In this document: positions 25,348-26,452 of the stretch, piece by piece | Layout of the letters: each line of letters starts with the position of its first letter | Numbering within the stretch: position 1 is the first letter of the stretch | DNA from: Candidatus Microgenomates bacterium | GTDB taxonomy: Bacteria > Patescibacteriota > Microgenomatia > JACQLA01 | Reading direction: 5' to 3' | Assembly: GCA_016204255.1 (NCBI GenBank) | Contig: JACQLA010000002.1 | Span: forward strand, 1-45,154 | Length of the DNA: 45,154 bases | Made by a program: the position numbers and the translations under genes | The notes under the pieces: model-generated | Seen by the model: the letters and a program-made list of their open reading frames with translations, nothing else | Database searches by the model: none | Told to the model about the DNA's origin: nothing

Positions 25348-25507
25348 ATCCCTGCCGAGCACGTTTCAAAATTAAGGAAGTTTTTCCTCACAGACTCTCG
25401 AGACTTTGGGTTTGGGCGAAGTCCTCGTTTCGCTGAGGCGGGACAGGCAGCTCTCCCACTTTGAAGCTTCGGGGAAATACCCTTAGTTTGCACGACCTGG
25501 TGGGGAT
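25348..25507 (+). ncRNA. ssrS: 6S RNA-like structured ncRNA
   Basis: Rod fold by eye: ATCCCTGCC/GGTGGGGAT, CAAA/TTTG, ATTAAGG/CCTTAGT, TTTCCTC/GGGGAAA, then an unpaired central bubble (ACAGACTCTC vs CCACTTTGAAGCTTC) and an apical stem. Own promoter, no ORF. Confidence 0.55.
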
Positions 25508-25581
25508 TTTCTTAAAAACTCTTCGATAATATTTTTATGAGTCTTCAGTTTATTTAAACCCTCAATGCCTTCTCACCTCAA

Positions 25582-25610
25582 TTGAAATTAGTCTTTCATT
25601 TTACTATAAT
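25582..25610 (+). promoter_or_regulatory. Strong sigma70 promoter of the tRNA locus
   Basis: TTGAAA-17 nt-TATAAT. Confidence 0.75.
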
Positions 25611-25668
25611 ATTGAAGCTTGCAGAACTCCCAAAGTCCGGGGAGAAGTTTTAGTTAACCCATAATTTT

Positions 25669-25936
25669 GCCGGGGTAACTCAGTGGCCCGTCTCGAATCG
25701 GCGCTCGAGCCGAGGCGGATAGAGTAACTGTTTTTGCCCCAGTAAAATCTTGCCAATTTTGATAAAATTGGCTTAAATTCACGGGATCCCGAAATTTCAA
25801 GCCGACTTAGCTCAGTGGTAGAGCAACTGTTTTGTAAACAGTAGGTCGTCGGTTCAAATCCGACAGTCGGCTCCAAAAGTCGGCAGAAATTTCTGGGATA
25901 AACAGCAAGTCGTGGGTTCGAATCCCACTCCCGGCT
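25669..25936 (+). tRNA. Interrupted outer tRNA gene (Thr-like body), pieces 25669-25686, 25720-25736, 25899-25936; functional status unknown
   Basis: Acceptor GCCGGGG/TCCCGGC, D stem ACTC/GAGT, anticodon stem ACTGT/ACAGC, T arm GTGGG-TTCGAAT-CCCAC, T73. Insertions of 33 nt (D loop) and 162 nt (anticodon loop). Confidence 0.75.
25801..25875 (+). tRNA. tRNA-Thr(TGT), nested inside the outer tRNA
   Basis: Canonical cloverleaf: GCCGACT/AGTCGGC, GCTC/GAGC, ACTGT-TTTGTAA-ACAGT, GTCGG-TTCAAAT-CCGAC, T73, encoded CCA. Confidence 0.97.
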
Positions 25937-25975
25937 CAGCGATAGCAAAGCGGGATAAACAACAGAGATTAGAAG

Positions 25976-26058
25976 GCTGGAGTACGGAAGTAGACAAACC
26001 GACCTGACTGTAAATCAGGTGCCTCACGGCTTCGTAGGTGCAAATCCTGCCTCCAGCA
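25976..26058 (+). tRNA. tRNA-Tyr(GTA)
   Basis: GCTGGAG/CTCCAGC, CGG/CCG D stem, CCTGA-CTGTAAA-TCAGG, long variable arm, A73. Confidence 0.93.
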
Positions 26059-26095
26059 CCCAAGTCTAACTTGGAAAATGTCGACTTTAGATTGG

Positions 26096-26452
26096 CTAGT
26101 CGGAAGAAGGAAGAGGCTTAGGATTCTCTAAACTCATAGGCATATCGCAGCAATACGGTCTACCACCTTCTTGATCTTGAGGATCTTTAACAGAGGACTT
26201 TTTCGTACACAATATTTGCGTCTCACAACCAAAATTTATCTCACCGGCGCTAGTTTTTCTTATGCCACCTTTTAGCTCTGTTACCTCAATTCCCTCTCGT
26301 ATCCTTGTGAATGGATTAGCACATTTATAGCGTTTTCCTAATTGAGACACAGCTCCTTCCCGATATGGTTTTCCGTCACTAACCTGAGTTGTCCATTCAT
26401 GACCATCTTCTAATTTTGCGGTAGCGGTTATTACCGGCGCTTCTTTACTCAT
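26096..26452 (-). CDS. Small Cys-rich desulforedoxin-like metal-binding protein
   Basis: QLGKRYKC...CETQILCTK...YCCDMPM pattern. ATG 26452 is preceded by TGcTAAAAAT. Confidence 0.6.
   Translation of the reverse strand: MSKEAPVITATAKLEDGHEWTTQVSDGKPYREGAVSQLGKRYKCANPFTRIREGIEVTELKGGIRKTSAGEINFGCETQILCTKKSSVKDPQDQEGGRPYCCDMPMSLENPKPLPSSD

Follow-up and report, generated by a model that had tools for sequence, protein, structure and literature searches.

Nested tRNA-Thr genes in a Candidatus Microgenomates genome: a probable family of cassettes that invade tRNA genes and supply a replacement

Transfer RNA (tRNA) genes are among the best conserved of all biological sequences. They are known to serve integrating elements as landing sites and to harbour self-splicing introns, and the region of the anticodon loop is a usual crossover site of integrative elements that target them. 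SegB is situated in the tRNA gene cluster of phage T4, and in the fungal mitochondria of Allomyces a mobile endonuclease reading frame reportedly brings a replacement gene end to atp6. Among the closest described systems are the free-standing GIY-YIG Seg homing endonuclease genes of phage T4 (PMC2988022, PMC13096335), integrative elements directed at tRNA genes, of which they leave fragments behind (PMC9897764), group I introns in the anticodon loops of bacterial tRNAs (PMC3984707), archaeal bulge-helix-bulge tRNA introns together with their transposition (PMC10714607), and the self-splicing group I and group II introns that bacteria belonging to the Candidate Phyla Radiation (CPR) carry in ribosomal RNA (rRNA) genes (2022). 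The locus presented here lies in a stretch of 45,154 nucleotides (nt) from a Candidatus Microgenomates bacterium (assembly GCA_016204255.1, contig JACQLA010000002.1, positions 1 to 45,154 of the forward strand; hereafter the window), in which an intact tRNA-Thr(TGT) gene is enclosed by the two halves of another tRNA-Thr gene. This arrangement is referred to as a nest, and its two genes as the inner and the outer gene.

With a probability of roughly 0.7, the insert that splits the outer gene is a member, devoid of an open reading frame (ORF), of a family of DNA cassettes that invade tRNA genes and carry a replacement tRNA, the outer gene being dead. A cassette consisting of a promoter-like unit, a 5' arm, a tRNA-Thr(UGU) gene and a 3' arm would have entered the resident tRNA-Thr(UGU) gene as DNA between TTTTG and TAAAC. 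The insertion would have inactivated the resident gene and the cassette's tRNA would have taken over, after which the outer halves would have decayed by a later hairpin of 33 nt in the D loop, an extra T and an A.C pair. Larger members of the family appear to carry, just 5' of the replacement tRNA, a GIY-YIG gene of the UPF0213 type encoding 83-101 amino acids (aa). A mini-element with a replacement tRNA was one of two models offered by an initial annotation of the window, and it is supported by the recurrent insertion site, the nesting, the decay of the outer gene, the promoter-like site, the patchiness and the GIY-YIG relatives.

In the following, L numbers denote loci, G numbers the genomes compared and C numbers contigs. 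The genome of the window itself (G000) is a metagenome bin of 0.71 megabases in 8 contigs and 81% complete, and the window is its contig C3.

Anatomy of the nest and state of the outer gene

The nest and its direct surroundings contain the following features (positions in the window):

25582..25610, + strand: promoter-like site 5' of the outer tRNA, TTGAAA-17-TATAAT, 11/12 consensus positions
25627..25644, + strand: short CTCCC..GGGAG hairpin between the promoter-like site and the outer tRNA (terminator-like scan and sequence reading)
25669..25686, + strand: outer tRNA-Thr, 5' piece a, with the acceptor 5' strand, the D stem 5' strand and the start of the D loop
25687..25719, + strand: G+C-rich hairpin of 33 nt in the outer D loop, arms CCCGTCTCG / CGAGGCGGA
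25720..25736, + strand: outer tRNA-Thr, 5' piece b, with the D stem 3' strand, the anticodon stem 5' strand and the first part of the anticodon loop including one extra T
25737..25786, + strand: insert unit 1, CCCCAG ... CGGGA, with a promoter-like site and a hairpin of 9 base pairs
25787..25800, + strand: 5' arm of the insert and leader of the inner tRNA, TCCCGAAATTTC AA, complementary to 25886-25898
25801..25875, + strand: inner intact tRNA-Thr(TGT) with encoded CCA (ARAGORN, Rfam)
25876..25898, + strand: trailer of the insert, with a copy of the inner acceptor 3' strand (AGTCGGC, 25878-25884) and the 3' arm GAAATTTCTGGGA
25899..25936, + strand: outer tRNA-Thr, 3' half, with the end of the anticodon loop, the anticodon stem 3' strand, the variable loop, the T arm and the acceptor 3' strand
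25937..25970, + strand: possible stub of a still older layer, ...GCGGGA then TAAAC AACAG... (inspection only)
25976..26060, + strand: tRNA-Tyr(GTA), which usually adjoins tRNA-Thr(TGT) in the class (ARAGORN, Rfam, relatives)

Only two tRNA genes, tRNA-Thr(TGT) and tRNA-Tyr(GTA), are called around the nest by ARAGORN and Rfam. The inner tRNA-Thr(TGT) reaches 77.6 bits with Rfam RF00005 (test: >29 bits) over model positions 1-71, possesses an anticodon loop of 7 nt and is the only tRNA-Thr(TGT) gene found in G000. Sequence reading, ARAGORN and Rfam place the pieces of the outer gene, the inserts of 33 and 162 nt, the inner tRNA-Thr(TGT) with its CCA and the tRNA-Tyr exactly where the initial annotation had seen them. 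Its further observation that the outer and inner genes differ by changes that preserve pairing also holds on re-reading: the acceptor is GCCGGGG/TCCCGGC in the outer and GCCGACT/AGTCGGC in the inner gene, the D stem ACTC/GAGT versus GCTC/GAGC, and the T stem GTGGG/CCCAC versus GTCGG/CCGAC. In the outer acceptor, 5' piece a, which is homologous to the outer genes of L022 and L063, pairs with 25930-25936 at 7/7 positions, one of these pairs being G.T.

The resemblance of the outer halves to tRNA-Thr is far beyond chance. The 3' half alone is found by the tRNA profile of G000 itself with E 2.2e-4 and exhibits 92-95% identity over 38 nt to the matching part of tRNA-Thr in other genomes of the class, and the joined halves share up to 69 of 73-74 positions with intact tRNA-Thr(TGT) genes from other members of the class, but only 59 of 73 with the inner gene. 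Concerning its present state, the outer gene appears from its sequence to be a decaying pseudogene with three defects, namely the hairpin in the D loop, the extra T and the A.C pair. When both inserts are cut out, four stems are obtained together with an abnormal anticodon loop, which ARAGORN reports as 'tRNA-?(Gln|Thr)(tg)', and a normal outer tRNA-Thr(TGT) results only after deletion of one further T. The anticodon loop comprises 8 nt, the first pair of the anticodon stem is A.C, and as encoded the outer gene has no match in Rfam and is neither a contiguous nor a single-intron cloverleaf; the 'full cloverleaf' that the initial annotation had seen after the cuts is thus not obtained.

The hairpin in the D loop is absent from the homologous outer gene of L022, and that of L063 contains a different hairpin in a different place. 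Since the three homologous nests differ in this respect (one without a hairpin, two with different hairpins in different places), the D-arm hairpins are considered to be later events in the outer genes. Nearly the same arms, at the same spot just before TAGA, are situated in a tRNA-Leu(CAG) fragment of G000.

The insert of 162 nt (25737-25898) starts with CCCCAG and ends with CTGGGA, and contains in this order the promoter-like unit, the junction of GGGA with TCCC, the 5' arm with the leader, the tRNA, the trailer with the copy of the acceptor strand and the 3' arm; the same trailer layout is found in L002, L022 and L003. No ORF of its own is present in the insert, the sole ORF across it being an antisense frame of 114 aa that has no Pfam match. 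The predicted fold of the whole nest region is far stabler than that of shuffled sequences (z -6.1). Both tRNAs had initially been placed under one strong promoter. The site with 11/12 consensus positions at 25582-25610 agrees with this, whereas a second promoter-like site is located inside the insert (25750-25779, TTGCCA-18-TAAATT, 9/12, with TGATAAAAT at 25760-25768); in total, the region contains 3 promoter-like sites compared to a mean of 0.8 in shuffles. The segment AAATTTTGATAAAATTGGCTT of insert unit 1 is conserved in L022 and L063, and by reading of the sequences a hexamer similar to a -10 element occupies the equivalent place in other two-unit inserts. The inner tRNA therefore probably has its own promoter.

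An assembly artefact, in which two strain variants were threaded together, or a chance duplication followed by drift would also yield one tRNA gene within another, and both are extremely improbable. Logan contigs of 4 runs from 2 studies, two of which runs may be the source sample, were aligned to 25400-26300. Run X1 covers 25400-25837 and 25820-26300, and run X3 covers 25400-25761, 25746-25828 and 25846-26300, in each case with 0 differences, such that all junctions are bridged independently of the assembler of the bin. The check for spanning sequence proposed in the initial annotation thus succeeded for each junction, in contigs from both studies, but not for the nest as a whole: no single Logan contig extends across it, the breaks being situated inside the inner tRNA, a sequence common to many organisms of the sample. 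This break and the fact that the genome is a metagenome bin of 8 contigs are what an artefact would explain; against it, the two sides of the nest are matched three times independently, by the inner acceptor, by the outer acceptor and by the arms, and the same architecture recurs with different sequences in at least 119 stretches from many projects. The outer and the inner gene belong to different tRNA-Thr lineages, and the nest is therefore not a local duplication. Tandem duplication was also rejected as an origin because the two halves of each layer pair together and are distinct from the inner gene. The initial view that neither a simple duplication nor a misassembly is involved thus stands, given the two lineages and the junctions bridged without differences.

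In runs X3, X5 and X6 (25799-25937), pieces of tRNA-Thr are joined to arms of the form CCTGCCCGCC... or ...CTGGGA in contigs of other groundwater organisms, so that this community harbours many nests side by side.

Around the nest, the window encodes an M50 peptidase, L28, Fmt, a VanW-like protein and unnamed proteins, and no mobile-element domains are found among these neighbouring genes. The genome-wide survey of missing anticodons that had been suggested initially left tRNA-Asp and tRNA-Lys(TTT) undetected among the 39 tRNA genes found in the 81% of G000 that is available, irrespective of whether introns were allowed. Downstream of the outer gene, the junction of GCGGGA with TAAAC at 25951-25960 repeats the motif of the boundary between inner and outer gene (25894-25903), and 25937-25970 is possibly what is left of a third tRNA layer of greater age, for which no 5' partner was found.

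Recurrence, insertion point and arms in other genomes

In 60 relatives, all of the same class, a plain tRNA-Thr(TGT) mostly stands beside tRNA-Tyr, and two of them share related flanks. When 400 genomes of the class were searched with the trailer and the outer 3' half as query, a homologous insert with an undamaged outer gene was found in G070, a minimal insert whose tRNA is bordered by 14 and 15 nt in G090, and two stacked 5' halves with a chimeric 3' half in G285. In G266 (L030, G266:C67), the cassettes' own tRNAs have themselves been invaded: three complete tRNA-Thr layers lie within each other, with halves that pair in each layer and with complementarity in every pair of leader and trailer.

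As a strict signature of such nests, a T loop followed after 20-45 nt by a tRNA 3' half starting with TAAAC was used, and the reversed pattern served as control. The signature is present in 10 of 401 genomes of the class, belonging to 10 genera (with two matches each in G266 and G363), compared to 0 for the control, and in at least 119 stretches of a collection with one genome per species. Among the 80 matches listed, the titles of 40 name Patescibacteria or its Candidatus phyla (a count of titles), and further titles among the matches listed name Gammaproteobacteria, Chlorobiaceae, Endomicrobiia, Elusimicrobia, Bacteroidota, Ignavibacteria and others, these labels being those of metagenome bins. 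Typically, among the matches listed, an intact tRNA-Thr (TGT or CGT) is followed after 8-31 nt by the 3' half of another tRNA-Thr; examples with Arg(TCT) and Met(CAT) occur as well. Multiple layers are also found in L118, and several stacked 5' halves in L111 and L091 (up to four in the latter). In viral contigs the nest pattern matched 2 stretches, neither of which is a tRNA-Thr nest.

A search of 167 loci with a tRNA-Thr profile, intact tRNAs being masked, revealed 213 tRNA-Thr fragments in 106 of them. Concerning the 5' fragments, whose ends are not selected by the search pattern, 43 of 73 end at profile positions 33-35, and a second group ends at 22-27; 92 of 113 3' fragments start at positions 34-35, a figure that is biased by the search pattern. 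The main insertion site is situated between the second and the third anticodon base, i.e., between TTTTG and TAAAC. A fragment adjoins 96 non-redundant intact tRNA-Thr genes, of which 38 are flanked by both halves with complementary acceptors, 38 by a 3' fragment only, 16 by a 5' fragment only and 4 by non-matching fragments; the paired nests are underestimated in these counts (the window's own nest was scored as 3' fragment only, as its D-loop insert splits the 5' half), and the class with 5' fragments only is inflated by fragments of neighbouring nests. Exact removal of the insert restores a valid tRNA-Thr in 20 of the 38 paired nests with no base duplicated or missing, whereas the other 18 outer genes are not restorable (1-12 nt missing, further inserts or mismatches). 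Insertion at this single site is precise and leaves no target duplication, as expected of a homing element. In L030, L093, L101 and L134, the outer 5' half ends with TTTT (TTCT in L134), the G being missing, and thus forms a class that is one base short; an A follows the TTTT end in L030, L093 and L101, and also in L094.

The 20 restorable genes bear on the second model of the initial annotation, a novel tRNA intron. In such a case, the inner tRNA would be freed by RNase P and 3' processing, the arms would keep the outer halves together, an endonuclease (possibly the GIY-YIG protein acting on RNA) would trim the ends and a ligase would join them, such that both tRNAs are made. In its favour may be quoted, besides the 20 genes, the arms, which bring the exon ends together in the predicted fold, the matching acceptor halves in all three layers of L030, and an Slx1-like domain fused to a tRNA methyltransferase that was noted in a 2006 survey of GIY-YIG proteins. 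We nevertheless consider this model very unlikely. In the window, the outer gene also carries the insert of 33 nt in the D loop, a loop of 8 nt and the A.C pair; elsewhere, 18 of the 38 outer genes cannot be restored, and many nests have retained one half only. Neither EndA (PF01974) nor RtcB (PF01139) has a match in G000, where 81% completeness leaves their absence unproven, and both searches were positive in archaeal control genomes. No intron or ribozyme family of Rfam is present: at E values up to 10, the region 25500-26100 yields the two tRNAs and weak chance matches, and the same applies to L107. The two junctions face each other across a 4x3 internal loop (TTTTG versus TAA) between the anticodon stem and the arm helix, which is not a bulge-helix-bulge. 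Furthermore, a search by nhmmer with the tRNA profile of G000 and by ARAGORN in intron mode found no tRNA gene that is the only one for its anticodon and contains such an insert, and the product of the outer gene would be redundant with that of the inner one. An even bolder variant, in which intact outer copies are rejoined as RNA by the same small nuclease, is equally hard to credit.

Concerning the arms, leader and trailer of the same nest pair with a mean of -16.6 kcal/mol in 66 nests, compared to -10.6 kcal/mol for mismatched pairs, and the pairing within the own nest is the stronger one in 59 of 66. By reading of the sequences, two types can be distinguished. Arms of the type TCCCG...CGGGA often occur in two units, a hairpin around a hexamer similar to a -10 element and then the tRNA unit, as in the window, L022, L063, L103, L117, L122, L125 and L128. 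Arms of the type CCTGCCCGCC...GGCAGGCGGG are situated in the anticodon loop or in the D stem. The same arms without any tRNA inside are found in the D, anticodon and T loops of outer fragments.

These arms bear on the main rival explanation, which leads to the same outcome by another engine: the arms would be the ends of a miniature element, similar to a transposon or dependent on a recombinase, that is excised and inserts in the loop-coding parts of tRNA genes, perhaps via folded single-stranded DNA, and the GIY-YIG protein would be a structure-specific nuclease acting on hairpins, or would not be involved at all. The complementarity of the arms within each element, with 59 of 66 pairing better than with other trailers, agrees with this, as do the recurrence of two arm families (TCCCG..CGGGA and CCTGCCCGCC..GGCAGGCGGG) across phyla, the arms devoid of a tRNA in D, anticodon and T loops, the near-identical hairpin at the same D-loop position of two different tRNA remnants of G000, and the palindrome, like the internal CGGGATCCCG, that joined ends would make. 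Such an engine is nevertheless unlikely. Inverted-repeat arms are present, but the target-site duplication of a miniature inverted-repeat (MITE) or DDE-type transposon is absent; the Y1 transposase of IS200/IS605 elements (PF01797) has 0 matches in the 81% complete G000; its two tyrosine recombinases (PF00589) are encoded on other contigs, C4 and C5; the insert is too small to encode anything; and no circular or excised form was seen.

An island carried by an integrase was rejected, as no recombinase lies beside the tRNA and the insert has only 162 nt. Elsewhere in G000 (C4:46118-46794), a tyrosine recombinase gene stops some 130 nt short of a tRNA-Ile(TAT) called by ARAGORN, which is possibly an ordinary integrated element.

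Several further observations concern tRNA fragments and hairpins outside the Thr nests. In G000, a tRNA-Pro(TGG) lies between the halves of a Pro-like tRNA (C5:121206-121410, - strand; L171) with the acceptor CGGGGTG/CACCCCG and a junction after TTTG, the outer gene being miscalled as tRNA-Thr(tgt) with an intron of 135 nt by ARAGORN in intron mode. A tRNA-Ile(GAT) of the same contig (C5:301185-301440, - strand; L172) has a 5' fragment (GGGCTGT...) on its 5' side and, on its 3' side, two Ile-like 3' fragments, one of which pairs with the 5' fragment, and at C5:121540-121610 (- strand) a tRNA-Leu 5' fragment with a CCTGCC...GGCAGG hairpin in the D loop stands directly before an intact tRNA-Leu(TAA). 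Short hairpins (e.g., TCCGCC..GGCGGA) split the T loop of the outer 3' fragments of L073, L096, L098, L119, L126 and L139 immediately behind GGTTC; the respective records are titled Bacteroidota, Ignavibacteria and Saccharibacteria. Small hairpins of the form (T)CCCCGAT-TTA-ATCGGGG(A), which may be terminators or REP-like repeats, are scattered over G000 (e.g., C2:11224, 11385, 11479, 20733; C5:29710, 200856, 289647, 304931), and one of them lies 3' of a tRNA-Ile.

GIY-YIG genes beside tRNA genes and the proposed mode of spread

The small GIY-YIG ORF found beside tRNA genes matches Pfam PF01541 with E 2.4e-16 and receives no NCBIfam name; its closest solved chains are 1zg2_A and 1ywl_A, annotated 'hypothetical UPF0213 protein'. 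G000 contains 9 such ORFs, 6 of which lie within 25-84 nt of a tRNA gene on the same strand. Three modules consist of a tRNA 5' piece with 1-2 hairpins, a GIY-YIG ORF of 83-101 aa and a complete tRNA of the same identity:

C5:22593-22979 (L170): module with tRNA-Glu
C5:145653-146110: module with tRNA-Leu(CAG)
C2:183620-183992: module with tRNA-Asn

The arms beside the tRNA-Glu repeat the adjoining exon CCATCG in both orientations. In other genomes, 16 of 29 GIY-YIG ORFs are accompanied by a tRNA on the same strand that starts between -19 and +139 nt of the ORF end, and in 11 of these 16 a 5' fragment of the same tRNA lies upstream; its break is situated in the anticodon, D or T loop, and arms like those of the Thr nests come after it. 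The GIY-YIG genes, the broken pieces and an intact copy of the same tRNA are thus physically linked. The outer 3' part has also been kept in L139 (Arg), L053 (Tyr), L083 (Glu) and L126 (Gln), which are nests with a nuclease gene inside.

The gene fmt is situated 2-3 kilobases from the nest in the window, G070, G266 and G285. Because of this synteny, and because other genomes of the class possess intact genes of its lineage, the outer gene is regarded as the resident tRNA-Thr of a conserved locus. Between the window and G070, DNA identity is 84% over 25720-25938 and homology ends at the end of the outer tRNA; the Fmt proteins of the two genomes are 42% identical. The distribution is patchy, with high similarity between distant hosts, as in homing elements. 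Rare and scattered occurrence together with similarity of non-coding sequence appears as horizontal spread would predict, constraint being the alternative. Of the outer 5' half, the nearest syntenic relative found (L173, with an M50 peptidase 69% identical) has retained no more than a short stub, which precedes its tRNA-Thr.

The most likely mode of spread of the cassettes is a homing-like mechanism. The nuclease would cut intact tRNA genes and repair would copy the cassette from a filled allele, with the conserved tRNA halves as homology, and the tRNA of the cassette would allow the cell to survive. The cassette of the window would have been moved by a nuclease acting in trans, or would have lost its nuclease gene later, and inserts that consist of a hairpin only would be emptied cassettes or scars of repair. 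A wider proposal, to which we would give slightly less than an even chance, is that of an undescribed family similar to a gene drive, in which the UPF0213 nuclease cuts the parts of tRNA genes that encode loops, and repair proceeds from a cassette that contains a cut-resistant spare tRNA with its own promoter, the universally conserved tRNA halves again providing homology. Such a family would cross the borders of families and phyla and re-invade its own cargo, and the hairpin arms, like the inserts made up of a hairpin only, would be functional components of the cycle or scars left by it.

A number of points weigh against the cassette explanation and its homing mechanism. The cassette of the window contains no ORF, and no GIY-YIG gene is present on contig C3, so an endonuclease inside the element is lacking here and the link to the nuclease rests on family resemblance. 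We know of no demonstrated homing activity of UPF0213 proteins, which consist of the catalytic domain only. According to the 2006 survey, prokaryotic Slx1-like proteins might act in RNA metabolism. Empty and filled alleles were not seen within one population, and among 80 metagenome loci reached via the M50 peptidase, only L173 and L185 contain a downstream tRNA-Thr(TGT), and neither is close enough. The similarity across families could reflect constraint instead of transfer, and, for recombinational repair, the homology arms are short at about 35 nt. Inverted-repeat arms and hairpin-only inserts are not explained by homing alone and are more similar to transposon ends. Finally, the perfect restorability of 20 of 38 outer genes could indicate either recent insertion or some selection.

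Three points go beyond the initial annotation: the outer gene is no clean cloverleaf, the inner gene is probably served by a promoter of its own, and the phenomenon is general.

If homing is true, several consequences would follow. The abundant small GIY-YIG proteins of the UPF0213 type would gain a biological function, part of the tRNA-fragment content of bacteria with small genomes would be explained, and tRNA genes, possibly together with decoding properties, could be swapped horizontally between distant lineages, in a natural drive that compensates its own damage. Concerning annotation, tRNA finders report the inner gene only, and their intron options lead to false hybrid tRNAs.

Comparison with described systems

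The cassettes are similar to free-standing homing genes in that a GIY-YIG gene lies beside tRNA genes, flanking sequence is carried along and the distribution is patchy, spread by cut and repair being expected. They differ in that the nest arises within a tRNA gene of the cell, which is destroyed and replaced as a whole, that the copy in the window is without a nuclease gene, and that the proteins are UPF0213-type domains (83-101 aa) devoid of a DNA-binding domain. With atp6 of Allomyces, as it is reported, the nests share an insert that carries a substitute for the displaced part of the host gene and a displaced part that stays as a pseudogene; there, one end of a protein gene is concerned, whereas the nests contain a complete tRNA gene with a promoter-like site, have kept both halves and occur repeatedly.

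Equally to integrative elements, the nests have a tRNA gene as target, leave partial tRNA copies and keep function by sequence borne on the element. Integrative elements, however, are of kilobase size, possess an integrase and duplicate only the 3' part at their far end, whereas the inserts of the nests comprise 104-162 nt plus arms, are not accompanied by an adjacent integrase and place a complete foreign tRNA between the two halves. With group I introns and archaeal tRNA introns, the nests have in common the site in the anticodon loop (in Archaea also the D or T arms), the mobility and the conserved position. In contrast to these introns, neither a ribozyme core nor a bulge-helix-bulge nor a splicing endonuclease or RtcB was found, the insert carries a gene of the host type, and the host gene decays. 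The introns in rRNA genes of CPR bacteria are found in the same kind of organisms and are likewise selfish inserts in highly conserved RNA genes, but they keep the host gene working by self-splicing, whereas the nests replace it.

In the literature searched, which covered few subscription journals, neither a nest of one tRNA gene in another nor a bacterial cassette of GIY-YIG gene and tRNA is described. A whole replacement gene, insertion in a gene of the same kind and repeated nesting are combined in none of the compared systems. Beside integrating elements and self-splicing introns, the nests would constitute a third strategy at tRNA genes, in which the gene is broken and a new one is brought along, repeatedly, such that genomes keep stacked tRNA fossils.

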